Assembly (NCBI GenBank): GCA_000708835.1
Contig: DF237641.1
Coordinates: 1-43,286 of the forward strand
From: Klebsormidium nitens
Lineage: Eukaryota > Plantae > Klebsormidiophyceae
Reading direction: 5' to 3'
DNA length: 43,286 nucleotides
Shown here: positions 1 to 22,875 of the stretch, piece after piece
How positions within the stretch are numbered: the first letter of the stretch is position 1
Layout of the letters: each line of letters begins with the position of its first letter
Position numbers and translations under genes: made by a program
The notes under the pieces: generated by a model
The model's input: the letters and a program-made list of their open reading frames with translations, nothing else
The model's database searches: none
What the model was told of the DNA's origin: nothing

Positions 1-124
1 GCGATGCCGTTCTAGGAGCCCCAGAAGTCTATCTATGCATATCCAGAGCGCGCAGAAGCCAGACGAGCGTTCTTGGAGCAAAATCCAGGCAGCTCGAGCG
101 CGGGTTCAAAAACGGATGCTGGAC

Positions 125-275
125 CACACGGAGCTCGTCCAGCTTTTGCAGAATCAAGGCATATATAATTGTGCAGAACGTGGACAGCTCTGGCGCCGGA
201 TGCCAACCTCACGAAGCTTGTCCAGCTTTTGCAGAATCAAGGCTTATACAAAATTGCAAAACCTGGACACCTCTA
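125..275 (+). repeat. 83-bp tandem repeat, about 2 diverged units; same family and orientation as 2783-3045
   Basis: The core (c/t)gtccagcttttgcagaatcaaggc(a/t)tata recurs at 136 and 219 (period 83). The ctctggcgccggatgccaacctc segment is shared with the array at 2783-3045. Confidence 0.9.
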
Positions 276-718
276 GTGCACTGGAACGAGCAAGCATCCC
301 TGATCGTTCTCTAATAAGCTCAATGGCTGCAGTATGAAAAAGCTTTTCAACGAACTTACCCGTGGAAGCCGAAACAAAGCTTGCAATGCTAGCAGTGTCC
401 ACTCCGCTGCATGCCCTAGTGTTGGCCATAGGTGCTTCTGTGACAATGCAAACGGATTAGAAGTAAATGAAGCTTGGAAACATGACATCGTGTTAAGTAC
501 ACTGAATCTTGGATGTGATTCGACCTTTCGAAAGGATCCGAGATGATCGTTTTTGTTGAAAGGCTCGGATTGCAATAGGGGCAGTATAGACTTGCGAGAT
601 CTACCATTCACGTTGCAGAAAGTAACCAGCAAGTGTTAGCCATCCGAAAATGACTAGACAAGTTGCAAACAATGTTCAATAGGCCTCAGTAACATCTAAG
701 ATCTGGTTGGAATCGTAC

Positions 719-1755
719 CTGCAAAGTCCAAGTCGTTGGTTGTCACTCTGCACCTGGAGGGGGCCTCCTCCACAGGCAGAGCAATACCTTGTTGCACAAA
801 GCACAGGACTGAGGGGTTTCCGAGCTTGCGGACGCGGCTCTTCATTTGGTCCAAACCTCTTGGCGTGGTGCTTCCCAAGCACATGTAGATGAAGGCTCGG
901 GCAAACCAGGGTTTGTTGAAGTCCACCGCAGCCTCGACGGTAGGGCTCAGCATGACCAAGCGTCTAGTCCATTGCTCGTTCACCTGCTCGAGACCCTTCT
1001 TGACTGCACCGCACGAGTCTCGTGTGATCTTTAGGATCTCAGCCTCAGACAGTATCTTCTCCTCAAGGACGACTCTCTCTAGCAGATCGACCTCATTCGA
1101 AGACATCGAGTACACGATGCAGTTCTCTCCACTCCGTAGCGATTCGAGCAACGTATTCTGCCAGTACTCATGCCCTTCCTTCCCGTTGACGAACACAAAC
1201 TCCAGGGGCCTCTCAGGGAGAAATCTATTGATGACTACAGGCCCGCACTTGATCTCGTTCATTGTGAGAAAGTCAAAGGTTCGTTGGCCTAGATGACCAT
1301 CGAGCGCGATGACTTTCTTTGCTTGCCGCAGAATCTCCACCAGCAGATTGACAGTGGAATGCCTGTTTCGAAAGGTCGAAGCAGACAGGTGGGAGAGGAT
1401 GGACTCGATCTCATCAAGAATGACCAGATCGAAAGGTGCAAGAAATCTTCCCGCAGCGATGAGGCCCGGCAAGCTGTCGAACTGGCAGATGACGTTGGGA
1501 AACTGTTCACGGTCGGCCAGAGCCTCCACAAAATGCCCCTGCTCGTTGAAGCGGCCCGGCATGCTCTTCAGATCGTTATAGTGGAAGTAGTCTGGGTTCT
1601 TTCCCTGGGCGTCGCTCGCTTGAGTTTGCCGGTATGTCACCATGAGCTTTGTTTTTGGCCTCGGCTCTTTGGAGGAGAGCTGCTTGACCATAGTGGATTT
1701 ACCGGTGTCCATAGGGCTCCGGATGAGTAGAGCCGGGAAGTCTCCTGCTTGAAAC
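719..1755 (-). CDS. Exon encoding a UL9/origin-binding-protein-like superfamily 2 helicase core
   Basis: ORF 696..1850: Walker A LLIRSPMDTGKST (~1718-1692), motif Ia LMVTYRQT, QFDSL, Walker B LVILDEIES (~1415-1404), VIALDG, SPTVEAAVDF and QMKSRVRKL. This is the motif order of the herpes UL9 / NCLDV origin-binding helicase family. Confidence 0.9.
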
Positions 1756-2182
1756 CTGCAATAAGGTTTTGTCGTCAAGAGATTCTCGAAGAAGTCTGCT
1801 TTTAGAGCAAGAACTCGTCTAGGTTCTGGAGAACTCGATGCATGTATCAAAAACGCAAAAGCTAGACGGGGTGGCCCGAAGAGTTAGTAAAGGTGATTGC
1901 TTCTTGACGTCATCGCATGGGCATATACAATATGAACAACAGCACTATAAATCACACGAAGGGACTACTTCGCGATTGAAACACACTTGGAAGCTCTGAA
2001 AAACCTAGGCAGTCAGGCTGGTTGGATGTTGAATCTGTCGCTCGCGTTGACATAAGAAAGTTGAGGCATCAGAGTCGCTGAGTATAAGTCGTCTGCCTCC
2101 AGCATACTCGATTTCAAACGGGACCGAGGCTTGCAAGGTGGAACTTTCAAAGAGAGACGCAAGGGAAAAATCTTTCACTTAC

Positions 2183-2718
2183 TTGTTGACCTGCCTGTTG
2201 AAGACAACGTCGTCCGTCATTTGCCTGATTCCAGCTCGGATCAATTGCAGATCCATAGGACCAGCAACCAATGGGTCCCTGCCCAAATATCGCATATTGA
2301 CCTCCACGGCTCCCGCTTTCCAACTTTTCGCGTCCGCATACAGAGGCCCTAAGTAGTGGGCAGGCTATTGTTTGCACGTCAGACCGGTCGCGGGGTCGAC
2401 TCTCTCGCTCGAACACTTGGCAAAGACCGCGTTCTCTCGTTCGTTTACAATGCAGAGAATGTCGCGCTGTCCGGGATGCATGTGCCCTGTATAGCATGGC
2501 TCACCATCCCGATCCGTCCAGCTGAAGTTGAGCTGGTTGCTTGAGCCTCGCTTGAAAGCGGTCGGGTGCAGACCTTGCAGAAGCTCGAGACAGCGCTGGG
2601 TGTTGTATGCGTTGGCAGAGTGTGGGCTGAGGTGTGCCATGTCCGCTGACTTCTTGAGAGGTCTACACTCCTTGACAGCGTCGGGCGCAATAGTTGGAAC
2701 CCGGATGAAGTCAACCTC
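2183..2718 (-). CDS. Exon encoding a primase-associated Zn-finger-like linker domain, interrupted by a premature TAG
   Basis: ORF 2365..2739 contains CYTGHMH...LCIV...VFAKCSSERV (C/H/C pattern of PrimPol/UL52-type Zn knuckles). Acceptor ctttgcag|GAG at 2718; donor AA|gtaagt at 2183. Confidence 0.65.
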
Positions 2719-2782
2719 CTGCAAAGCGGCATACAACATCAGAATCTAGACAATGGTTTCTCTGGCTGGAATCGCTCTGTGA

Positions 2783-3045
2783 CCACGTGGCTCGTCCAGC
2801 TTTTGCATAATCAAGGCTTATACAAAAGTGCGGAACCTGGACAGCTCTGGCGCCGGATGCCAGTGCGGAACCTGGACAGCTCTGGCGCCGGATGCCAACC
2901 TCGCGTGGCTCGTCCAGCTTTTGCAGAATCAAGGCATATACAAAAGTGCGAAACATGGACAGCTCTGGCGCCGGATGCCAACCTCGCGTGGCTCGTCCAG
3001 CTTTTGCAGAATCAAGGCATATACAAAAGTGCGGAACCTGGACAG
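2783..3045 (+). repeat. 83-bp tandem minisatellite (~3 units plus a 35-bp sub-duplication) inside predicted intron 2719-3127
   Basis: cgtccagcttttgca starts at 2793, 2911 and 2994 (spacings 118 = 83+35, and 83). The units are near-identical, so this is not a CRISPR array. Confidence 0.95.
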
Positions 3046-3127
3046 TACCTGCAAACGACAAAGCAGCCAGTCATGCGTATCAAGTTGTTCGTCAATGTAC
3101 TTGAATGAAAACTCTTGATCATCTTAC

Positions 3128-4005
3128 CTGGTCCAGCCAAGTGATGACTGCGTCCGCAAACGGCTTGCGCGGGTCCAGAGGCAGCAACGGGCACAGAGGG
3201 GCGGACAGGAGGGTTTGGAACACCCAGGCAATCTGATGCCCCGATTCCGGGTGTACACACCCTGGTCAATCAGCTCCGCTAAGTGTGGCGAGAGAACTTC
3301 AGCGAGCCTGCGTGCGAGCTGTCCTGCCCCTTGCGGATCCGCTGTGTGTGCGAGATTGGAGCGGAAGACCAGCTGCGGGGTGTGCGTAGAAATGATGAGA
3401 TGCAGGCTGAACTTGCCGCCCGGGCCGTAGTCGCAGGGAACCCAGTTGAAGGCCGCCTCGTCAAGCTTCACGCCATAGTCCTCTATGAAGATCCGCATGA
3501 TTGCGTCCTGGAACTGTGTAATGACGCTCTCAAGAGTCTCCCCCTCCGGCAGGCCGCCATCTCTCTCCATGTCCAGGTACGGTTTGCACGGCCTCCCCTC
3601 TACCAAAACCTCCTCTCCATGAGGCTGCCCCTGGAAATGTTCCATCGCCGTGGGCCAGTCTGGGTAAGAGCCGTACCTCCTATACCCTTTGTTCTCGGAC
3701 AGGTGACGGATCTCAACCTTGTGGTCCAGCAGAGCAGCAAAGCGCTTGCTGAATCCCTGAGGCCCGTTCTTAGAGTCTTTGCAGCTGAGCCCAGACATGC
3801 TAGACATCTTTGAGAAGAAAGAGGTGCCCAGCATCATCTGGCGGACGGTCTGAACGGTGCCGTTCTCAACGGTCTCACTATGGACAATCGTGCTGTTGGG
3901 AGGGAGAGGTCGAATAGGTTGCTCGCTGCTGGGGACACTTGAGGTGGGGTTCTCGTGATTGGAAGGATTCGCAGGGGCAGCTGCCGTCTCGTCGGGCAGC
4001 AACAT
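3128..4005 (-). CDS. Exon encoding an AEP-superfamily (PrimPol/UL52-like) primase catalytic domain
   Basis: ORF 3124..4005: motif I RPCKPYLDME (DxE at 3573-3565), motif II KFSLHLII (SxH) and motif III LIDQGVYTRNRGIRLPGCSK. A frameshift restores PLLPLDPRKPFADAVITWLDQ, ending at the donor CAG|gtaaga. Confidence 0.9.
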
Positions 4006-4663
4006 GGAAGGCTACATCAAGAAAGAGAAGCACACAAACTTTAGATATGTGCCAGTGAATCGACGTCACGAATGATATTTAGATATCTTTGCACCGAATC
4101 GGTTTCAGACTCACGAGATGCAAGCTCGATATCTCCTGGCATCTGCTTTCTTCCGACATACATTGATAAGCGGCAAGATAGGCAAAGCGTCACACTTGAT
4201 CATTGGTGAAATGCTTTGGCTTGCTGCACGGAAAGATGCTGGCCAGCTTGGAACAATAAACCAGCATGAGAAACTGACTGAGTAAGGACCTGACTCTGTC
4301 ACAGTCAGTACGTTTGATAAGAGTTTTCTCAAGCTGTTTCGTCTGAACTCTCAGAGAGTAGAACTCGGCGCATCCTCCGTTGTTTACGAAGGACAGTCAG
4401 AGAAGTCGGCATTTTTTGCGTCGCTGGTGCTGAGCCTACCTCTGCATCAAGATCAGCAACTTTCCGTAGGGTTCCCTCAGTTTTGCGCGCTGCTTTCCTT
4501 TGTGCAAACTCTGCACTGTCGCTGCCCTTGTCATCGTTGCGGGTTCTCTTCCTTCTTCTGACGCAAAAGTTCCTCTGGCCTTCAAGCGATTCGGCCGCGT
4601 CAATCTGCACAAGTCGACAAGTGGATCAAAATCTGCGTGGTTAACACTAGGACCGATAGATAA

Positions 4664-4896
4664 CCGTGCCCGATTGGGCACGGATAATATAAATTTGTAA
4701 GCATTGGATAGAGGCCTTATTTTGCAAAGTATCTTTCTATACTAGATAGCCCTTTTCATCCCGGTCACAACGCTTCTTTCGGATCCGCAATCCGATAACT
4801 TTTGATGTATATGTCATCGATGATGTGCCGGTAGAAACTGAGAACTGCGAAATAAGCTTCACGGGCAAATTATTATCCGTGCCCAATCGGGCACGG
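4664..4896. mobile_element. 233-bp non-autonomous MITE with perfect 25-bp TIRs, piggyBac-type target (ATAA left, TTAA right)
   Basis: ccgtgcccgattgggcacggataat (4664-4688) is the exact reverse complement of attatccgtgcccaatcgggcacgg (4872-4896). It is flanked by ataa (4660-4663) and ttaa (4897-4900). The interior is AT-rich and has no convincing ORF. Confidence 0.85.
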
Positions 4897-5425
4897 TTAA
4901 CTTTGTGAAGCGGTCGTGACGTCACCTTTGAGAATTTTATAAAGATACTTTGTAGACATGTTGGGACGGACCTAATCTTGTTTGCATACTAGTTATATGG
5001 CTAGCTAACGACTGATCTCATCATCTACAATAGGTGTGCACACGCCTACCGCGAAAAGTGGCTGTTTTTGAGCTAATTGCATGGATTCTATTACTTCCAT
5101 ACAACATTGCACCTCGTTTGAACATTGAAGCAATTCAGATTAGATTTATATATGTCTTGGCTGCACGATTGTAAAGTTTCAATGAATAAACCTCATATTT
5201 GCACCAACTTTCACACACTCATATAAGGATTGCCCATATACAGCTTTTTCCCTGTCATACTGGGGGCATGTATGAAACCATGATCAATTGGACTTCTTTT
5301 CGAGCCAGACTGGTAAGACTTGAGACTCACAACATTTGCAACAATCCAACACACAATTTCAAAGCGGAAACCAGTCTGGACAGAGTTTTCAGAATAGATA
5401 CGTCGAATAAAACACGTCTAATAAT

Positions 5426-8162
5426 CTACTTAGGAATCCTCTTTCTCTTTGCCCCAAAGTCCCTTCCTTCCAATCTCTCCGTGTTATGCCACTCTTTGAA
5501 ACAGTCCCCAAAGCACAAGGGGACATTGCAAGCATAGCAGTAGTATCGAGTACGGCTACCCTCCTTTTCTACTCCCATGTTCTTCAGCGCACACAGCCTG
5601 CACCGCCTGCGCTTGTTCCCCTCCGTCTTCTCGCAGAAGTGCTGGCTGCTGTTGCTGGCTCCTCCTCCAGACCTGGACAGTACACAAGAGCAATAAGATA
5701 TACTGTATGGTACACGAAGCATCCTAAGCGGCAGGCTTGCAACTCAAACTCAAACCCAAATTCAAACCAGCCACTCACCAGACTGTCCAGACCAAAGAAG
5801 CAACTAACAAGAATGTCCAAACCAAAGCCAGCAACAGGTTGACCACAACCAGGTAGAATCAATCAAGCAACTAACCAACCCCAAATCAGCAACTAACCAG
5901 CCCCAAACCCGCAACTAACCAGCCCCAAACCAGCCACAAACCAGCTCCAAACCAGATTACAGAATTGCTCGCAGCCACTTGCATCAGGTGCCACACTTAC
6001 CCCCTGCCAGACAGCCGATTGTCTTGTGTGTTCTCCACCAACTGCTGTTGCAGAGTGAGCATGAACTCAAACCTGCTGACCTCCGGGTGCTCCTCTTTGA
6101 ACAGAATGTAGGCATTGCTGAAAGCACTGTCCAGCAACCCAAGAAAGACCCGGATCCACCACTTCCTCGAAACCACCTCCATCTCAGCGCTATAGTGCTG
6201 ACTCAAACACGCCTTGTCAAACTGATCTACCCCATCCTTATACTTATTGTAGACGTACGCAGCCTCAGGACACGGAATCTGATCCACTGCAGCGCCAAGT
6301 CGGCGATCAGTTTCTCCCATCAACAAACAATGCGACGTGCTGACAAAAAAGACTGGCTGTCTATCCTTCCAAGCAAACGCCACCATGCCCTGCTCCCTCT
6401 CCACTGCAGCCACCACCGTTCCCCTCTCCGCCTCCTTATCCAGCTTCAGCATGTGAGCTGGAAACTGCTTTCTGTTTGTAACACACGTCCCTGTCCCACT
6501 GAAACCCTTAGCTTTGAGCGACTGCAAGACAACTGGCGCTGTAAAACCCCTGTCCAAAATGCAGACATGCCCTAGATCTCGAGGCAAAGTGTCAGCCAGG
6601 ATGTCTACCATCTTTGCATGCAGGTCCTGGCACTTGATTTTATCGTAAACATGCTGGTGCCAACAATAGAAAGTTACAGCGTCTACAGCGGCAAAAACCT
6701 CAACCCCAAACTTATGGGGTTTCTTAGGGTTATAAACTCTAACGGGGCAGGCTCTATTCCTAATGGGGATGGTGCGCTCATCAAAAGTGACATACTGACC
6801 AAGCCTGTAAAACTTCTTGAAAGTATCATTGATAGTGTCTAGGAGGGGAAGCAACTGCCACAGGCGGTACTTTCTAGTGCTCCTATCAGCTGGTCGCTGC
6901 GAGTTGTCATTCAGATGCAAGTAACGCTTTATCTGCTCAAACCGATTCTGAGACATGCCCGTACGACTGGTATCAGGAAAGGTGACGTTGCCAATTCTGC
7001 CACTGCGCCAGTAATCAGACAGCTGAGGCGGGGGATGCAAGGCCATGGACAAGACAATACCAACCCACTTCAAAAGCTCCTGCAACGTCACAGGAGTCCA
7101 ACCCCGTTGCTTCCCTTTCTCTGTTGGGCCTGCATCCCCCCTGCTGACCTCTGCGTACAAGTTCGTCTGCTCGACTGTCCCTTCCCAAAACCTTTCCAGC
7201 GGAATCAGCAGCAGAAAGATCTGAAAGGGATTGAGCAGGGACAGGCTGCCGATGACTCCCCTCACAACCCTGGACCGGCCACCCTTCCACTCCGGGGGCT
7301 GGATGAAGGCGCAGTCATCCCCCTCCTCCACAGCTTCCCACTGCAGCGCCGCAGACGAGGAGGGAGCAGCCGCCTCCCCCGCTGTCTCCAAAGGGTCCCC
7401 CTCGTCTTCCAGCTGCTCGTCATCGGAGAACTCCTCTTCCCCACTTGACGCTCCATCCAGCAGCTGGCGGGGGACTCTCTTCCTCGCCTTGGCCTTGGCA
7501 GCCCTCTTCTTCATGGGCTCCCGTTCCACTGGCACTTTTTCTTTCCCCTTCCGAGAAACAGGGGCTGACTGCCGGGCTTCTTCCTCACTCTCCGTCTCTT
7601 CCTCACTCTCCGGTTTGTCCCCCTCGTCGGACTGCTCCTCTTCGTCGTCCTCTTCTTCCTCGTCAGACTCCACCAGCCGAGCTGGCGGCCGAACTGCTCT
7701 CCTCACACGAGGAGCATCCTCAACTGCATCCCCGCCAGTTCCCCTTCTTTTGCTCTGGGGTGTCCTGAGATCTTGCTCAGGGTCAGCCCTCGCCTCGGCA
7801 GCCCCCCCGGCAGCCCCCCCAGCAGCGTCCTCTTCATCCCCCACCAGCAATCGACGGGGTGCCCCATGCCCCACAAGCACCTCTAGCGTCCACCAGTAGA
7901 CGCTGCCATCAAAGTCAAACTTGACCTGCCACCTTGCAGGTGTTTTTCCCCTTCCAGGCTTGTGAACCTCGATGTGGCCCACAAGGGTTTCCGTCTCCCA
8001 CTTGTCCCCAAAGTTTTCCTTTGCCCAAGCTTTCCCAAAAAAGGACGCTTTCACATTGACCATGAGGCCAATGGAAGGATGCAGACCTGCAGCCCCTGTG
8101 GATACGGAAGCCATGGCGCCAGTGAAGGAGGAGAAGTCAAAGGTCAACCTGTCCCCGCTCAA
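5426..8162 (-). CDS. piggyBac-family DDD transposase, two exons (8162-6001, 5672-5426), about 800 aa, with C-terminal cysteine-rich domain
   Basis: ORF 5997..8162 carries YVTFDERTIP, KPHKFG, CILDRGFT and YNKYKDGVDQFD (three catalytic Asp), plus WWIRVFLGLLD. The phase-2 intron 6000-5673 (GG|gtaagt ... ctgtccag|G) joins it in frame to HFCEK...RRRCRLC...RTRYYCYACNVPLCFGDCFKEWH. Confidence 0.95.
5866..5954 (+). repeat. Short tandem repeat (~23-bp then ~11-bp units) in the transposase intron
   Basis: gcaactaacca(a/g)ccccaaa occurs three times, followed by ccagc(c/t)(a/c)caaa variants. Confidence 0.8.
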
Positions 8163-8454
8163 AATCCCAACCAGACAGCACCTGCAGCTTGACCAAGTTT
8201 CTCAATCCCGCTCAAATCTAGGATTTTGAATTCCATAGGCTGAATCTGCGTTGTGCACACTGATGTGCACTCTGGGTTCTGTGCTTGTTGGACAGGACCA
8301 CAATGTCCGGTAAAAATCAAGCCCATCTGGGGGTCAGCTGATCCAAAGTGACCAATCAGCAGTCAGGTAGGGACCATGTGGCACCTACTCAGGATAACTG
8401 ATGATTGGACACCAAGATCTGGGGCCAGAATGTGCGCGCTTTGCTCGCGCTCAA

Positions 8455-8485
8455 TTAACCGTGCCCAATTGGGCACGCCGTGCCC
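8455..8485 (+). mobile_element. Left end of another TTAA element of the same TIR family as the 4664-4896 MITE, truncated by the gap
   Basis: ttaa (8455-8458) is followed by ccgtgcccaattgggcacg and a further ccgtgccc, then Ns. Confidence 0.75.
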
Positions 8486-8505
8486 NNNNNNNNNNNNNNN
8501 NNNNN
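8486..8505. other. Assembly gap (20 N)
   Basis: Run of N in the sequence, directly after a palindromic repeat end. Confidence 1.
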
Positions 8506-9677
8506 TGCTGGAATTGAGAATTTGACATCGCCGACTTAGATTTCATATAGGCCCGCAGTCCGCTGTTATTTTGCTTGCCGTCGAGGCTGAGTCTGGTCGA
8601 GAAGGTCAAAAATGCGTGCACGTATGGCCAAAAACTGCGCATACGTAACTGGCCCTACGCAGCATACGTGTGCGAGGCGCACATTCTTGCCCTCAAAATG
8701 TCCCACTCGGGAACAGACCCCGATCGGACAGACCCCGTAGCGAAATTTTAAGGCCACCGGCAGAGACGGAAGGGGAACACGTGGCACCCTGAGATTGGCA
8801 GATATCATGCCGGATTTCAGATGGTTAGTTGATCTGGGTGCGATTGTTTCTGGCGCTGATGTGCAAGTCTAGATGGACGTTCGTTGACACCACATTCCAA
8901 TCTTGGTTCTCGGGCGAAGGAAAACAGGACTGAATGCACGGTACACCGGTTGCGTGGGGTAGGTAACTGGAATCTGGATGTGTTGAGGACGGCAAAGTTT
9001 CTGCATGATGAGTCCGTTCATGATGCCTGAATGTACGGGCACCTCAGGCGAGCGAGATTCCACCAATGAGCTTCGTCTATCCCACGTTTACAGCGACCAA
9101 AGTAACTTTTGGAAGATTCATGGCCATCCAAAGGAGGTTGCGGAGATTGTGCAACTGAACAAGCATGCTTTGCTTCGCTTGTACCCACGACTGAGTACGG
9201 TACGCGGTAGACTGCACAAAACACGAACAAATGTACCGTAACGTACCTGCGGTCGTACCTACCGTACCCCCAGTAGGAGGTGCCCAATCCCCACTTCGGT
9301 TTAGGTTATGTAGCTGGGTTGACTACAGCCCGGTCCTCCGGGCCCAGTCTGCCACTGCCAGGCAGCTTGCTAGGCCCCACCTACCGGTGATCCAGCCTAC
9401 CAGACAGAAGAAACCCATTAGGTAAACCTTCATTGTGGGTTAAATATAATGAATGGGTTAAATAGATGGATATCCCCGGTACGTACTGATGCCACGCGTA
9501 AGCCCGAGCATGACTTTGAAGTGTACATGTGCCATTGTACAAAGCCGGACAGGCGGAAATTATCCCGTGACGTTGAGTACTAGGTAGTCGGTACATTTCA
9601 CTCTGCACAGAGCGCGAGGAAGTGTTGCAGCAAGCTGCTCGCAAGCAGCTGCGCTGACTTCGCGAGGCCTGTGCACT

Positions 9678-10322
9678 TCAGCGAAGAAAGGTCCAAGGGT
9701 TGAGTTCAAGGCTTGATGAATCTGATGAACGGGACCTTCGGCCAAGGAGCTTGAGCAGCTTTTGGTGTTGCGCTAGCAAGGAGGTGTTCCTAGTCACCCA
9801 AGGATTATGGGTGCGTTGAGCTTGCATGAGAAGCGCACGACGAGCTTGCTTTTCTAAGAAGACCGGAAAACCAAGATTGGAGATTTTGCAAGACAGGTGA
9901 GCAGCTGGATTTGTGGGTGCGGTCCTCTTTGCGAGCTTTTGTGCCCGCCGCTTTGGATTTTCTCGTGCATGAGGGTGGGGTTAGTGCGCTGCAATGCATC
10001 TATACAATTTGCCCAAGTCATTTACAGCATGCCGCACTCCTTTCCTTAGCTTGACGACATGGGGTTGGAATAGTTTTGGCAGGGCAGCTTGCAGTTGCAT
10101 TATGGTCCACGAGATGGAGTTTGAACTTGCACACTCGTAGACATGTGCTCTCATTAGCTGCTGTTGCGCTCAATGCCTAATGGTGTCGTCCCGTCCGAGA
10201 TTGCAAGCCGGCTGATGAGGCATCACTGAAATCTGCATCGTCGAGAATCCTCCATCTTTGAACGTCTCAGACTTGGATAATGAAAGTGTATCTGCAGGGA
10301 CCTTTGCTTTGTCAAAGTCGAT
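9678..10322 (-). pseudogene. Possible decayed protein-kinase (TKL-like) remnant
   Basis: One minus frame reads ~215 codons with only two internal stops: IDFDKAKVP...FKDGGFSTM (Gly-loop-like), KLFQPHVVKL (HPNIVKL-like) and CKISNLGF (KIsDFG-like), in kinase order. No intact HRD motif, and the spacing is short. Confidence 0.35.
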
Positions 10323-10525
10323 GGGGGGTTTATATTTTTTTTCCCTCTAGGGTTCCCTGGTCCTTAATTCGTCCCAGCAGCATGTGGCAAAACCTGTGAG
10401 GTGGTTTTTCTTGGTGCAGCACTCATCAGACTTGACCAGCCACCTCTTATGGTCATGTTAAGTTTGCCAGTCTTGGAGTTTCAATGCATTGATTCTTCCT
10501 GCAAAAGGTGGAGTTGACTTTCACT

Positions 10526-10573
10526 TGCATTTGTTCCTTTGTCTGCCGAGCTGCATTTGTTCCTTTGTCTGCC
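10526..10573 (+). repeat. 26-bp-period direct duplication
   Basis: tgcatttgttcctttgtctgcc at 10526 and 10552. Confidence 0.85.
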
Positions 10574-12594
10574 AGAATATGATCTCAGAATCTGCAGAGA
10601 GCAACATATTTGCGAAGAATGGGTAAGAAGCAATATGGGAATTGGAGCTTCAAAAGATGCAGTGTGAAAAGAGATGAACAGGCCGATGTGCCCTTTGAGG
10701 TCAGAAGTGCAAGATTCGAGAAGCCTCGCCCTCTGCGACCAATGTTAAGCCTTCACCAAAGCGGATGAAGAAAAACTAGTAAGAAGCAATGTTCTGAGCA
10801 TGGTTCTGGATACACTATTGTTTGGAGGAAAATGCATAGTGCAGCTTGTGCAACTGCACTCACGAGCCTGGAATCATATTCTGCTGACTGTTTCAGCAGC
10901 GCTGCGGGCCAGCCATGACGAGCGGTCTTCAGAACATTCACAAGCTAGGTGCAGAAGCTGCCTGAGAATGCTTGCTGCGGATGTCTGGTGCTTGGACTTG
11001 TTTGATCACCCTGGTGGTTTGGTGCATTAGGCCTGTTCGTATGGTCATTCGCTTTTTTGAGTTGATATTCTTTCTGGCAGAGTTTATGTGTGAAATGGCT
11101 TGCCAACCAGAGAATGTCCTGCCCTAAAGGTCATATATCCTGTAAAGTTCAAGCAGCGTTGGCCCTTCTTCTCCTTTTTCTCCTTGCTTTCAAGCCTCTC
11201 ACTCCAAGAGGATTTTGTTTGATTGCTCTAGACTTGTTCTCTTTCCAGTGCATACGCCTAAGATATTGCTTGCTTAATGCTCATGATCTGGTTGAGGCCA
11301 TCAGGTTTGCAGAGCTTTTGGCGCACAGGCTATTATCCTGATGTCTTAGGGCTTACTAGTGGATCTTGCGCACCTCTTTGTGCATTTGCTTTGATTGATC
11401 CTCGCGTGCGCTTTCTGAACTGGATCTTTCAAGATTGGAATCCTTCCATCTACTCGCATAGTAGTTCAGGTGCCTAAACGAGCAATCTGACGGTTGCACT
11501 CTTAGGCGTCTCTGGAACACACTGCCTCCCTGCATTGTACATACATTCCAGTCTTGTTCATCCTTTTCCCCCAGCCCTTCTGACCAGATTTGAGTACAAT
11601 TCCTAAAAAGGTATTCAACATGGCCAAGTGGCGCATCTAATCAATCCATTCAATCACCAGCTGTTTCTTAGCTGACACCTTCTGAATGAACCAAGCACTT
11701 CCAAAGAAAAATTCAAAAGCATAAGTGGCATGGAAAGGTAACCAATACTTGATGTGCAGGTGACATTAAGCTATAATTCGCATGGATTCCGTTCAAGCAA
11801 GTGCATCAAGCTCCGCAGGATCCGCCAGTTGCGGGGTCAGCTGATGTCAGGTGGTCTTACCTGTGCAGCGTTGACACCAATGACTGGAGAACGGCGTACG
11901 CGAGGGCGGCTTGAGCCAGAGAATTGGTTGGCCCGGGACACAGATAAGGCCAGGTATGGCTGAGTCTTTTGCTCTGTGCCCTTTAACCTTGCTATATTCT
12001 GCGCGCGTTTGTCCTTTTGTTCTTTGAATCAAGAGTGATTACTAGGTTCCAAGGGGTGTCTTAGATAGAGGGGCGGTTAAAGCAATCACTAAGTGGAAGC
12101 TCCTGATTGAGCTTGACAGGTAGCGCTTCCAACGAGGATTGTACTGGTTGACGACAATGTCTTTTTCCTTGGTTTCCAACGGCACTACTCTCTCAGCATG
12201 TCCTTTCTGTAGAAATCTGCTTCCTCATGGTGCAAACTGCACCACAATCAAAGTGCAGCTTGTTGCCAGGCGTTCTGAAGTTCTCTGCGGGAGACTTTCT
12301 TTTGATTGAGTATGCGCCCTTAACACAAAGCACACACCATCAGATTGACTTTCCATAGTAGGAGCCTCTCTACAACCACATCTTCACCGCTTGTTACATC
12401 TTTGAGAAGAGTCGTCAACACAACCCCCATCTTTCCTTTTTTTGTCCAGTCATCTTTTCTGTATTCATACCACTACTCCAGTTTCATACAGATGAGTCAG
12501 CTGATGCTCAACTGATGCTTTTTTAGTTTGCCTGAACGAAGGATTCCTTTGCCCTCCCTCCTGCAGAAAACAGCCCCTCCTAGCTGCCGTCAAC

Positions 12595-15500
12595 ATGCGT
12601 CTCCTTCCTGAACTGCACCCTCTGGATTCCCCTGGGGGGGACAACGACGCCGATCTTCAGGAGCTTATCAACAAGTACCGCCGACCTGAGAACACCGCCG
12701 ACACTGAGGTGCGCAGGAGCCCCCGTACCCCCCGAAAAAGTTTCGGCGATGATGCTAAAGGGCGGGGGATACACGTTCTGATCGAGGAGCTCTCCAGGGG
12801 GCTCTGTGATTCGTCAGGAGGGGAGAAACTCGCCAGCAAACGGACCCCTGGGAGGAACGTTCGTAAGAAGCCTCCCCCTCGGGGAGAAAGCGATGGTGAG
12901 GATAGTGATGAGGAACGGCCTCTGGAGAATGGAGCGGCACTGCTTTTGGAACTTGCAGGGGGGTTAGCGAGTCCCCCCCCTGGGGAGGGGCGCCCCATGC
13001 GCCGGCGGCAGCAGGTGCAACGGTATGAGCCTGATGACGCCCCCGTTTCGCAACGGGGGGGCAATGTTCGGCTTCCAAAGGGCAGCGAGGAGAGGGAGGG
13101 GGGAGAGGAAGAAACGATTCCGGACGAGCGGCGGTGCGTTATCAAGGGGGGAACCGGGTGGCGCTGCCCCTTAGAAGCTATGGAGGGCCTCAAGCACTGC
13201 GAGAAGCACCTCGTGAGGATGCGGGAGCGGCGGCGAGGGCCCCGGGGGGGTGCGTCCGAGAAAGCGTCCGGGGACTCTCTCGGAAAAGCGTCCGATGGCT
13301 CTGAGGGGAACGAAAATGCATCTGGGGGGGAAGAAGTGAACGGTGGAGGGGCGGTCAGAGGCTCCCCGAGACGGCGGCGGAGTGTGAGCTTCGCAAAAGG
13401 GGGGGTGGACGACGAACCGGAGCATGCTGCTGAGTCGCCAACGTCTGATGGGGGGCTCAACGTTGAGGGGGGGGAAGAGGGACAGCGGGCCCGGAGGCAG
13501 CCGCAGGCGAAGAAGGAATGGAAGGAAGAAGAAGACGCGGTACGGGTGCGGGGGGCGGTGCGGTCAGCAAGGCCGAGAAGGAGGCGGGCGGTGGGGAAGT
13601 GCTGGGGGGAGAGTGACCTTGATGGGGAGAGAAAGGAAGCGGAGAGTGGGGAGCAAGGGAAAGCGGGAGGGGAAGAATCTGAGGAGAAGGAGGCGGCGGG
13701 CTTAGATGTGCTGTCAAAGGAGATGCTGACGTTGGAAGCGGAGAGTGGCCAGGGGAAGGGGGAAGCCGAAGTGAAGCCGGGAGAAGGGGGAGTTGCGAGT
13801 CTGAGGTTGGTCGAGAATGAGACAAAGGATGCTGAGATGAAGGGGGAGGATAGAGCGGGGTGTGCCGGTCAAACCTTACCGGATAAGGAGGGGGGAAAGA
13901 GTGGCCTGGAGAGTGAAGAACCAGACCGGAAAGAGGCCCAAGAAGAAGCAGTGCTGAAAGGAAACGGGGAGGCGGGGTCAAACGAGGCTGTGGAGGGGGG
14001 CTTCACTACAATAATGGAAGAGGAGGGCGCTGATGGAGGGGGAACAGGGTGCCCCCCCCGGGTAATCTTAGATACAGACGTAGTACAGGTTGCAGCGGTT
14101 GCAGGGGGCGAGAAAACGAAGAAGGAGCGGAAGCCAAGGGCGCCTGGCGAAGGGGCCAGAAAGGCGAAAAGCTCTCCCGGAACGCTACCAGTGGGGGTGG
14201 TTTTAAGTCCTGGGACTGTCATGGAGGCTAAGAAGGTTAGGCGGAAGTCAAATAAGGGTGGCGCCCTGGGGGCAGGCTGCCAGGTGGCAGCGCAGGATTT
14301 GCCGGGGCTCTCGAAGGGGGTGAAGCTCCCAAAAGTGGTGTCGGAAAGCGACAGCGACCAGGAGCCAATTGGGAAGAGGCTGTCGGGGGAGGTTCCTTGG
14401 GGGAAGGTCACCGCCAAACCCAGCAAGGTCATCCGGCCAATTATCCTGGAAGCCAGCTTACCGGTTAAGGGGGAGGTTAGGGACGGGGCAGAGAGCCTGA
14501 GGCCGCAGGTTGCGACGGAGGAGGAAGGGGGAGCAAGCGTGCCTGACCGCAGTGGAGGGGCGAAGAAGAAGAGGAAACGGAAGGAGGATACTGAAGGTGA
14601 GACTTGATTCATGCCTCCGATGCAAGAGTAGCGGAAGAAGGATTGTGTTTGGGAGATGAACGGATAGCAGGTCCTTAAACACGATCAATGGGAAAGAGCA
14701 GTAAAGAAAAGGAGATACAGGGCGGTCAAGGAAAGTTGTCTTGACGGGCATGAACAAGCACGATGTCTTGAATCTGCCAGTTATTCGTCAAAAGGTCTTT
14801 GCAACGACAGGCAGACTTCTCGCTTGACAATCCGATCAGCTTGAGACTCCTTGGAAAGGTCTATCTTCTCGCAGCGGCTCTTTGTTAAACCTCAGATACC
14901 CCCAGAGAAGCGTTCACCGCTTCTCTTGCTCCCTCTGTTTCGAATGCGTCCCCTCTCCCTCGTGCTCCATCTCTGCGCGCATTCGCGAGCTGCGAGTCCA
15001 TCGCTTATTGATGCTTCATAGATCATGTTATAATCTTCGGATGCAGATCCCGAGCGTTGCCGCGAAAGGCGGGCGGCGCGCAAGCGCCTCAAGAGCGAGC
15101 AAATGTCTGAGGTCCTCAATTTAATGGCGTCCCTGATGGCGCACCAGAACTTTCCGGGGGGTACGCTGGAAGCCCTAACCTCGGGCGAGCCCCTGCCCTC
15201 CATTCCGATCAGCATGGAGGACGCGGGGAGCGCGTCTGACGAAGAGCCGATTGCCCTGCGTTTGAAACCTGGAAAAGGGGGGGTGCTTTCCAAGGGCAAG
15301 TTCCGGCCCCCCAGCGACGACGAGGGCAAGTCGGAAGCGGACGCGATCTGTCAAAAGCCGAAGAAAGAGGTGCGGAAGCGGGAAAACGTGGCTGGGGCGG
15401 GGAGGAAACGGCCGAAACTGGAGACGCAAGAACTGAGTGTTGGGCTGGAGCCGTCCTCCGGCGAGGGGTTGCTCGAGACGAAAAGGTCGGACGCGTCGGG

Positions 15501-18823: not shown

Positions 18824-20946
18824 TTGTAAGCTTTCAGAGGTTGTACACTATGTTTAGGCCATTTGCCGGCGCGCTGGGTGTGGACTGTGCGACTCTCGAT
18901 TGATTCTGGTGGCATGTGTATGTTAAGCAGATTTTAGCGGCAAAAATTCAAATGATACAGGTTTTGCCACATATGCAAGGTACGAGGCATGGAAACCAAG
19001 CCAGTTCTAGAAAATAGAGCATCGAACTTGGCCAAGCCTGTTGGGCAGCAATTGTGTCTAGACAAGGAGACACAGAAGTATAGGCCAGCAAACCTACCGT
19101 CCGAAATCCGACACAAGTCGGGTGACTTTCAATTGACATTGCTTGTGTCGCTCCATTGCATGGGGCCACTCAATATTACGTACACAAGTCTTGAGGTACT
19201 TCAAACAGCTCAATGACTCACGCTCCTATTGAAGTGCCCCTCCCTTCAGTATCATGCATACATATATTTGCATGTGTGGCGATGGCAATATTATCGGGTC
19301 ATGCAGTAAATTGCCACTGAGGCCGCGTGACAATGATACCGTATGATCATTACCTAGCTGGTTTGGTCAAATGATTAGACTGGAGTCATGGCCCGTCAGT
19401 GCTGTGTTTCATTACTTCGACCTCACTGAGTAATGCACACAAGTAAATGCAGCTAAGATGGCATGGTAGCTGATCGATTATGTATGTCCCGGCAGACTCC
19501 AAATGCTAATTTGATATCCACCGAGTCAAATCGTTCAACGTCGGTCAGTGCGTTTCGGCTCATGCGTCGGACCAGAGGGTCCCGGCGCGTGCGCTATGCA
19601 TTGTTCGCATTTGTGTCGACTCTGTTGTTGAAGCCCGATCAGCCTATATTAGTCAGAATAAAAGCGAAGTGACTAGCGAGGACTGCATGAAGAATGGCAT
19701 CCTCTGGTTATGCACGAAGAATTAAAAGCACGTACCCGGCTGACGGTCGGGGCTGCAAGCCGAGGGCTGCGTCGGCGTGCACTCAAGTCCTGCAGCAGCT
19801 TTAGAGCAATGATGGCCGCCGTAACTTGAAATAGCATGCAATACATGAGTAAGTCTACGAGACCGCACCGCTGACTTCGATTATTGGTTGGCGGCCGCAC
19901 CGGCATGCAGAGCCGAACGGCACCTCTGCGTGCTGCTAGTGACTGCCAGCGTGATCAAATCAATGACAATTGCCAAAGCTTTCGAAAAATGCTGTCATTT
20001 TGATCACGCAACGTGAAAGTCTCTTTTCAAATAGCCATAGCCAGTTCGGCCATAGGCTTCTCATGGCATACATATGTGGTGTGTAGATTGATTGGACATG
20101 CAACATGTCAGTCTCGGGCAGAGGAGATGCTACTGTTACCGTACCGCGCATCAAGATGAAACAGTCCACTCGAGTCCTTATCAGCTCGACGAATCGTTCG
20201 AACTTCAAATCCAATGTCTAGAGCGAAGACGCGGCCCGGCCGCCGGCCTGTCGATCGCCGAGGGCCTAAAGGTACGGTATATGCTCCACGGAGAACTGAT
20301 TAGAAGGTTTGCGCGGGCACACAAGTATCAAGCCGCCTCCAATCCCAAGCTCCCGTGAACATAAGTACCTGCACTTGCAACAAGACGAACGGATCTCTTG
20401 GAGTCTGTCTGCCGTTCGCGAATTGCCCTCGCGACCAATCTCGCGGCCGCCCTCGCGGGCTGCGTTCTCATAAGCAGTTTAGTCATTATTCCTTATTCGT
20501 TGTCCGAGCAGTCCTCTGCGCCTTTAAGCCTCTGGTGTAGCTCACAGCGCAGGACCTGAATGCGCGAAAGGCGCTGGATCACTTGCTGTCGCGGCTCACG
20601 GGGGCTTGCTTCTATAGGTTGGACCAGCATGCATGCATCAGGCTGATCAAGCAGGTAACTGATTGGATGGAGAGGGAGTCAGACGCCGGCAAAATCACAT
20701 GCGCTGCTAGTCCTGCTTAATCTGTTGATCTAGCGCACACTCTCTGGGTGAATTGTTTCGAACTAGGATAAGGGGAACAGGATGAAATAGGAAGGGGTTT
20801 AGGTTGGGTTCAAGGTTTGGAGCGGGGCGGGTGAAGCTGATCAGTTTCAAGTGTTTGGTCCCTGACAAAGTGGGAGGATCCATAAGCTAAGGGGATAAGC
20901 AGGTGGTTAAGGGGTGCGCCCTCTGAGGCGCTCTTTATTCCGAAAG

Positions 20947-22875
20947 ATGGACGAGGACCTGGAGCAGACAGTGGAACGCTACGCCACGCTGCTGACGTCA
21001 AATGACGCCGAAAGGTTTGAGAAGGGGTGCGCGCTGATAGACGACGCGTGCTACCAATCAGAAGAGGTTGGAAATCAAAAAGCTGAATCAAGCTGGGCAC
21101 CAAAGAGTAGGATAGAAGTTCAGGTTGGAAATCAGAAGCAAGAGAGATTTGCTAGAATTGCGCAAGAGCTTGCAGTCTACAAAGGGAGCGCTGTCTTGCT
21201 GCGCCTTTGGGAGGGAGCGCTCACTGAAAGGTCTAGACTTGAGCAGTTTGGAGATGCTTCAACGGCGGTCAGATTCTTTCAGACTAGCTGCATCGCGGTC
21301 GCGTGTCTGTCCACAAGCAAGGTCGTCGTGGAGCGCTGCTTGAAAGAACTAGGCGCGGCGGGGCAGAAGCGCATCGCGCGGGAGGTTTACGAGACTTTCT
21401 ACGCGCGCGCGTCGCGGGCCGCGCGCGAGATGGACCCGGAGAAGCTGATAGCGTATGGGCGGCTGATGGTCGCGACGCCGCTGAAGTGCGTGGCCAACTT
21501 TGCGCTCGCGTCCAAAGCGTTCCGGGAGGCCATGAGGGAATACTCCGCGGAGCGCTCGCTTTTCGAACAGTTTGGACACTTCCTTTCCGCAGAGTTCCGC
21601 AGCAAGCTGCTCAGCGGAAGCGCTACGTCAGTTCCGTTGTTTCTGTCAGATCTTGCGATGACACTCGCGTTCTCAACCGACAGTCAGATGTGGGCTCTCG
21701 ACAAAGGTCTTCTCAAGCTCATGGCAGCCGTGTACGAAGCTTCCGCTTCCGCAACCCAACGAGGCCGGAACGGAACTCCGGTGTTCCGCTGCAACGCGTC
21801 CCTGCTGCACCTGGCGCAATCGGAGCCCACAGTGGAGAAGCTGCGCGCGCTCAACGCCCTCGAAGTATTCCGGCCCTACAAACGGAACATCGTCATAACG
21901 GAACCGAACGGAATCGACCTCTGGGAATATATTGAGGCAAAGCTGCTCCGCCGAACCGTCATAATGAGAGAACTTAGTTCCGGTCGGCAGTTTACCTTAA
22001 GCGCGCAAATGAGCGGAAGCGGAACCCCAGTCGTTTGCTCATGGAAGCACTGTACCGCAGGACCCGAGCCGGTTGAAGGGACGAGATTTGAAAAGTGTGG
22101 GCACTGTAAAGTTGCTCGCTACTGCAGGTAAGATCAGAACCGCACAATGGCTTCAAACTGAACACCGTGCACGTGGTCAACTTTTCAGAATTGAGCAGAT
22201 TCTCCACGTATTGAGCCGATGTTAGGGGCTTGAGGGTGATTGAGTGAGGGCACCAGTTCACATTGATATTTTTGCGAAGGATTCTGACCTGTCACACAAC
22301 TTGGACACAGTTGTCCTTGTCCCGGAATTCTTCTTTTGCAAACATTCTTGGAGTGCCTGAGCCTTTTGAATCAGGAAATCCATGTTCTCAGGCCACTTTC
22401 ATCAAGCCATTTCGAGCGAAGTCGAATCAAACCTGTGGGTTTGGCCGTGCGGGGCTCAATATTTTCCGACGTGTGTTGCAGCGCGCAGGCCTTGTGGTCT
22501 CGCAGTTGCTTCTTCAGTTCTGCCGAACGAGGTCTGGATTGCATTGCCTGATTGTGATTTCAGTCAACCGAGTCCTGATTTTCTATCCTTGATTGTCCAC
22601 TTGAGGTGGGTTGAACTTAGTAGTGTATTCAATCGCTTCACATAGAAGCTTTTCAATCATCGACAACTTTGACTGCCGTACAGACGTGCGAGAGTCGGAG
22701 CAGATATCTTTGTGCAAGAAACAATGATATGCACAAGCTAAGCTGGCGACGATCGAGTCAGTAAGCAGAACTGGTTCTTGAATCTTCGTGCAGCAAGGAG
22801 CACCAGATCCTGCATTGGCGCACCCACAAGATTCACTGCAAAGCGAGTCTGGCGCAAGACAAAGCGAGTTCGTAG
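20947..22875 (+). CDS. Helical-repeat-like protein with C-terminal MYND zinc finger; exons 20947-22127 and 22794-22875
   Basis: ORF 20914..22131 ends CSWKHC...FEKCGHCKVARYC at AG|gtaaga. The acceptor cttcgtgcag|C (22794) continues in phase as SKEHQILHWRTHKIHC...stop, completing the MYND pattern. ATG at 20947 chosen. Confidence 0.88.

Follow-up and report, generated by a model that had tools for sequence, protein, structure and literature searches.

Contig DF237641.1 of the alga Klebsormidium nitens (assembly GCA_000708835.1), analysed over its full 43,286 nucleotides ('the window'), raises the question of why a eukaryotic chromosome carries an intron-containing gene for a PrimPol-type primase joined to a UL9-like helicase: is it the leftover of a virus, a host gene, or the replication protein of DNA that copies itself? 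A sequence-only reading had placed this gene at positions 360 to 4005. We find that it belongs to a dispersed Klebsormidium family and that the window copy broke recently, and we give roughly even chances to the reading that the intact gene, a spliced primase-helicase of viral origin, encodes the replication protein of self-copying mobile DNA.

The gene lies on the minus strand and has three coding pieces, 4011-3128, 2718-2183 and 1755-719. They had been read as one protein with motifs of an archaeo-eukaryotic primase (AEP), a zinc motif and a UL9-type superfamily 2 (SF2) helicase, and paralogues that are contiguous across the introns confirm this. The features of the gene and its 3' side are as follows.

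4440-4604, minus strand: upstream exon encoding an acidic, low-complexity leader (tblastn match to residues 37-101 of the K. nitens protein KFL_013220020; AG/GT boundaries)
4012-4439, minus strand: intron 1, GT-AG, 428 nt, phase 0, GC 0.46 (boundaries; junction peptide close to that of protein P0010)
3128-4011, minus strand: PrimPol-type AEP exon, 884 nt (alignment with human PrimPol; Klebsormidium-type relatives)
3573-3559, 3408-3397 and 3270-3241, minus strand: AEP motifs A, B and C (alignment with human PrimPol)
2719-3127, minus strand: intron 2, GT-AG, 409 nt, phase 0, with an 83-bp tandem repeat at about 2786-3045 (paralogues contiguous across it)
2183-2718, minus strand: linker and C-H-C-C zinc-finger exon, ligands at about 2496-2371 (motif kept in relatives)
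1756-2182, minus strand: intron 3, GT-AG, 427 nt, phase 2, between primase and helicase (position common to other Klebsormidium copies)
719-1755, minus strand: UL9-like SF2 helicase exon (Pfam Herpes_ori_bp)
1718-1695, 1418-1404, 947-918 and 848-828, minus strand: helicase Walker A, Walker B, motif V and motif VI
275-718, minus strand: non-homologous stretch, GC 0.44, whose first bases, at 718, are a donor-like GT (C-terminal profile without match here; intron-like composition)
113-274: second array of the 83-bp repeat (87% identity to 2889-3044)

At introns 2 and 3, the paralogue proteins stop on one side and resume on the other, and the junction peptides are free of gaps. The GC content of the introns is 0.45 to 0.51, compared to 0.53 to 0.59 for the exons. 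We hold that the introns of the window copy are spliceosomal, their splicing being predicted by homology; the AEP and helicase domains would lie in one polypeptide, as they do in contiguous paralogues and in intronless relatives. At least three and probably four introns had been proposed within the span. Those at 3127-2719 and 2182-1756 are sustained by homology, while a further exon down to 360 is unsupported. The boundary at 4005 had to be moved: a further intron (4439-4012) and exon (4604-4440) match the N-terminal part of KFL_013220020, so that the gene start lies upstream, both features resting on this one automated K. nitens gene model. No 5' continuation of the leader exon was found in the window. 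Intron 2 is missing from P0049 and P0075, two unsplit JGI open reading frames (ORFs) that continue through the position, and is therefore not common to their subfamily. As a side observation, intron 2 resembles a GT-AG intron of 79 nt joined to an insert of 330 nt that carries the 83-bp repeats; the last 7 bases of both parts are identical, a pattern that target duplication at the acceptor would produce.

The domain assignment of the sequence-only reading was borne out. The primase exon, which neither PHROGs nor Pfam recognised, aligned in phmmer (E 0.0011) with human PrimPol at all three AEP motifs; it is 91% identical to P0010 and 56 to 68% identical to seven other Klebsormidium-type proteins. 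The helicase exon matched Pfam Herpes_ori_bp with 39.1 bits (cut-off 20). The C-H-C-C motif of the middle exon is conserved among relatives, and a Herpes_UL52 match on a Coccomyxa homologue was weak (E 0.077). Near-invariant positions are retained at 31 of 32 sites in the primase exon, 18 of 18 in the zinc-finger exon and 42 of 46 in the helicase exon; with 91 of the 96 kept, the window copy has decayed recently.

The sequence-only reading had named single-copy status among the findings that would refute it, and the gene is not single-copy. Protein searches returned 15 gene models of K. nitens, each set on a different scaffold, together with JGI and ENA ORFs in the same clade. The closest protein was KFL_013220020 (91% identity in the primase, 85-86% in the helicase). 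The K. nitens copies formed one clade in quick IQ-TREE trees rooted at the midpoint, with supports of 98 (helicase tree) and 97 (primase tree) in the Shimodaira-Hasegawa-like approximate likelihood ratio test (SH-aLRT), the only support measure used. The subfamilies were 34 to 97% identical, many of the models were partial, and several are numbered low among the genes of their scaffold. Intron 3 recurs at one position across subfamilies: in unspliced ORF calls, P0032, P0049, P0075 and the gene model P0073 end there, and P0001 begins there. Its presence at the same place in subfamilies about 38% identical implies that it is older than their split, and hence that amplification followed residence in the nucleus.

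N-terminal leaders vary in the automated gene models. The motif G-[GA]-[VI]-E-x-N-P-G, close to the consensus of 2A ribosome-skipping peptides, is present in five K. nitens models of two subfamilies (P0005, P0014, P0015, P0016 and P0073). It lies about 430 to 610 residues before motif A in the four models where motif A was located. In three models it ends in W, whereas skipping requires P. The leader of another model, P0003, the sixth, has a ubiquitin domain ending in GG. No 2A-like motif was found near the gene in the window.

Beyond the 'only two lesions' originally noted, the window copy is damaged in other ways. The two lesions are real: a frameshift near 3200 in the primase exon, deduced from an exon of 884 nt sitting between two phase-0 junctions, and an in-frame TAG at 2367-2365 where relatives carry a residue. 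To these are added a G to A change in helicase motif V, a Walker A reading SPMDTGKS, and the absence of the C-terminal domain of about 370 residues that follows the helicase in relatives. A profile built from 29 relatives gave at best -3.4 bits in the three minus-strand frames of 1-790, compared to 55-180 bits for three held-out relatives used as positive controls; the domain may lie past the window edge. An exon reaching 360 thus loses its basis, and a last exon between 718 and 360 was rejected, the profile having no match there. The stretch 718-275 is probably a long intron that continues past the window edge, unless the copy is truncated here, and a full-length protein cannot be made from sequence inside the window. 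The closest gene models, P0010 and P0013, likewise end within the helicase. ESM Atlas returned no family for the C-terminal domain. At its 5' end, the gene meets a miniature inverted-repeat transposable element (MITE), then a piggyBac.

Relatives in other algae were found by profile search in Asterochloris glomerata and Tetradesmus obliquus, and through cluster members in Coccomyxa elongata, where one 1277-residue sequence has two accessions, each on its own contig. Of the 22 members of the Asterochloris-type cluster 15 were listed; several lie on contigs 1.1 to 4.6 Mb long, and all 11 pieces compared were 92 to 98% identical to Aster-02351. In the ORFs of Coccomyxa type and Asterochloris type, the breaks fall near Walker A at two other positions; judging from these ORF ends, introns were apparently gained separately in these algae. 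According to the supplement of PMC6652019, Aster-02351 is expressed at 19.0 and 13.9 reads per kilobase per million (RPKM), a value close to the level of neighbouring IDs.

The ancestry of the gene is, we hold, viral, as had been proposed. Fusions of an AEP to a UL9-like helicase are known from mimivirus R8, pF1055L of African swine fever virus (ASFV), OsHV-1, some mriyaviruses (SF2_hel) and SmDNAV (PMC11253617 and bioRxiv 10.64898/2026.08.29.747986). Like the R8/pF1055L type, the window gene has an N-terminal AEP with intact motifs and a C-terminal UL9-like helicase in a single protein; unlike it, it is nuclear, spliced and multi-copy, its leader is long and acidic, virion genes are absent from its surroundings, and the C-terminal domain that follows the helicase in relatives was not found within 1-790. 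The window gene has a C-H-C-C finger, whereas the giant-virus relatives P0019-P0025 have PriCT-2. Herpesviruses share the UL52-type zinc finger and the UL9-type helicase, but the two functions are on separate proteins, and in orthoherpesviruses UL9 has no active primase. Cellular PrimPol (CCDC111) aligns at AEP motifs A, B and C but is without a helicase; the relatives, fused to one, depart from its stand-alone arrangement of AEP and zinc finger.

The nearest relatives outside algae are about 30 intronless environmental proteins of 1050-1200 residues without a long leader, many with the residue bias of GC-rich genomes. In a fold search with one of them, giant-virus origin-binding proteins ranked at the top (AlphaFold model of low confidence; predicted local distance difference test, pLDDT, 55). 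Profile scans of IMG/VR gave relatives of at most 30% identity among the matches listed, in giant-virus bins and other viruses, and the closest algal clade was not among these matches; one of the scans used a pattern carried by 16 of 34 close-clade proteins, and another covered 49 of 64 parts. Single-protein scans gave no match in IMG/VR or in GTDB genomes. A metagenome scan with a loose helicase pattern, covering 15 of 64 parts, yielded at least four distant loci, none from Klebsormidium among the matches listed. The top ESM Atlas cluster consisted of Mucoromycota Herpes_ori_bp proteins (59 members, 93% eukaryotic, score 0.95), possibly a parallel fungal expansion, the comparison being by Atlas features alone; clusters from Nucleocytoviricota and Preplasmiviricota were also among the neighbours. 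Two further relatives are noted in passing. An intronless 1119-residue relative in a giant-virus bin (L020, 5309-8665) lies near an Ulp1-like protease and a CoiA/UvrD-like gene. P0037, an environmental protein, has a related AEP and PriCT-2 followed by a D5-type region in place of the UL9 helicase, so that helicase swapping does occur.

A second line of relatedness leads to plasmids. The helicase and C-terminal region match the NCBIfam model CyRepA1 (NF042913) with 119, 128 and 139 bits, 119 bits being the score of the window helicase exon; the curated cut-off of 200 was not reached. CyRepA proteins, which combine a primase-related domain with a DExD domain, are plasmid replication factors that sustain autonomous replication (PMC10079941). 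CyRepA1 thus resembles the window family in its helicase and C-terminal region and in the fusion of a primase-like domain to a DExD helicase, and differs from it in having DUF3854/Toprim where the family has an AEP primase, and in belonging to cyanobacterial plasmids and not to a eukaryote.

Two further features were annotated upstream of the gene.

4664-4896: piggyBac-type MITE with CCGTGCCC palindromic terminal inverted repeats, flanked by ATAA and TTAA, immediately upstream of the leader exon and outside the gene
5426-8201, minus strand: piggyBac-type transposase and zinc finger (Pfam DDE_Tnp_1_7 and zf-Tnp_2)

A second copy of the MITE, at 8455-8485 with its end at 8459, runs into a gap of Ns (8486-8505). 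The piggyBac has an open frame of 734 codons with the zinc-finger piece separate, and its observed/expected CpG ratio of 0.53 was the lowest among ten regions measured; its ends were not found. As a carrier of the gene it is unsupported, no TTAA-flanked pair of inverted repeats enclosing the gene. Elsewhere in the window lie a long host-like ORF with a WRC domain (12505-14607) and a 406-codon ORF (20911-22131) without Pfam match, whose terminal CxxC cluster is, we presume, reminiscent of a MYND finger. Within the window, the 83-bp repeat occurs only inside the gene (intron 2) and just 3' of it. It had no exact match in IMG/VR, its unit folded no better than shuffled sequences (z -0.39 and 0.98; array 123-269, z -2.63), and Rfam gave no match in 1-12500. 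One copy, at about 2953-2944 on the minus strand, has 9 bases of the Box I of herpes simplex virus 1 (HSV-1) oriS as given in bioRxiv 10.1101/2025.10.31.685793; the other copies differ, and this resemblance, spotted after the fact, is probably chance.

The absence of capsid, packaging ATPase and DNA polymerase genes claimed for the window was confirmed within the reach of Pfam, which divergent capsids escape: none of the window ORF pieces in two scans (15 and 17 pieces) matched a viral hallmark (major capsid protein, ATPase, B-family DNA polymerase, VLTF3), the 3' side of the gene lying off the window. With the same scope, no capsid, packaging ATPase, HUH nuclease or integrase of mriyavirus or polinton-like type was recognised, and there was no GC step along the window. 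This lack of viral genes, the number of copies, the broken state of some and the intron held in common all agree with the proposal of a minimal replicator and not a provirus.

That the copies are instead relics of algal DNA viruses (nucleocytoplasmic large DNA viruses (NCLDVs), mriyaviruses or polinton-like viruses) which integrated repeatedly with an R8-type primase-helicase, later gained introns and were spread passively by segmental duplication or other transposons is a real but lesser possibility, and a self-copying element is favoured over it. The protein type is viral, and the intronless, leaderless environmental proteins and the Nucleocytoviricota and Preplasmiviricota Atlas clusters agree with a viral source. 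NCLDV inserts are reported in both hosts, in PMC5294986 (K. flaccidum, which is K. nitens) and PMC6652019 (Asterochloris), and they keep the provirus-relic reading alive; they share with the window family the hosts, the viral ancestry and the presence of several diverged copies. The K. flaccidum inserts comprise 5 DNA polymerases, 6 ATPases, 6 capsid genes and 5 VLTF3, with a blank D5 column (PMC5294986). But the known inserts are intron-poor blocks dominated by viral genes, whereas here a gene with three introns, conserved ones among them, lies among transposons and host-like genes, with no recognised viral core neighbour and no composition step. An intron common to subfamilies 38% identical places amplification after nuclear residence, motifs remain conserved across the divergence of the subfamilies, and there are 15 models, compared to 5 or 6 per core viral gene.

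Several observations weigh against a self-copying element all the same. This window, which holds one copy, showed neither an element end nor a target-site duplication, and neither a gene that travels along nor an integrase. Given the blank D5 column, the R8-type protein could be the primase-helicase of the K. flaccidum virus itself, and one virus may hold several such copies, three primase-helicase loci being present on one viral contig of 1.15 Mb. A 13-member D5-type family in Asterochloris has its listed members on viral scaffold 80, and IDs near Aster-02351 are divided between host scaffold 114 and viral scaffold 80. The pair of Coccomyxa accessions may stem from a duplication made in assembly, and the ENA cluster members may be drawn from different assemblies. 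The grouping of the algal copies is weakly supported (84, primase tree), and five K. nitens models bear an altered Walker A, SPMDTAKS. We consider it unlikely that the family is a domesticated host one, acting in repair, repriming, or subtelomere or organelle maintenance, with a pseudogene in the window. Introns, a host-like GC content and the expression of the Asterochloris homologue near the level of neighbouring IDs would suit such a family, as would the low scaffold gene numbers of several K. nitens models if they reflected subtelomeric repeats. Low gene numbers are equally expected of repeats that break assemblies, however, and the distribution is patchy, many copies are partial or broken, and N-terminal leaders and intron positions vary, the latter by lineage.

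A replication protein of self-copying mobile DNA therefore remains our preferred reading. One trait of transposable elements is seen at the protein level: the family is dispersed in many copies, young ones and dead ones among them. The C-terminal domain of an intact protein would recognise and load onto an origin in its own element, the SF2 helicase would unwind the element DNA and the AEP would prime synthesis; host polymerases would then copy the element outside the chromosome, in the manner of the single primase-helicase Rep proteins of cyanobacterial plasmids. No transposase, recombinase, HUH nuclease or integrase domain was found by Pfam among the full-length relatives scanned, and new copies would therefore enter the chromosome by host repair or recombination, or with the aid of a partner gene. 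The lineage-specific introns would be explained if the element passed through nuclear transcription. All of these steps we infer by analogy.

At its most extended, and only tentatively, this would define a new class of eukaryotic mobile DNA, copied in plasmid style by one PrimPol-zinc finger-UL9 protein without capsid or B-family polymerase, present in Klebsormidiophyceae, Trebouxiophyceae and Chlorophyceae with separate intron gains; in Klebsormidium, a leader of 2A-like or ubiquitin type would release the protein from a polyprotein. The suggestion of an undescribed system stands in part: the fusion protein was already known (PMC11253617), and its presence in algal nuclei, spliced and in many copies, is the part for which we found no published account. 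No description of a spliced multi-copy algal family was found in the literature searched, subscription journals and Repbase being outside its coverage, and the accessible part of PMC10120064 does not mention Klebsormidium.

Among self-copying DNA elements of eukaryotes, Polintons use a protein-primed B polymerase, and Helitrons and Replitrons use an HUH nuclease. Should the copies be virus relics only, they would still document that several lineages of algae gained introns in a viral replication gene and kept it for long. If the preferred reading is true, biochemistry would gain an enzyme of R8/pF1055L type expressed from the nucleus, and algal episomes possibly a replicon. A spliced primase-helicase family that spreads through the nuclei of algae would be a third self-copying route, and a visible step between a giant-virus gene and a resident genome parasite.

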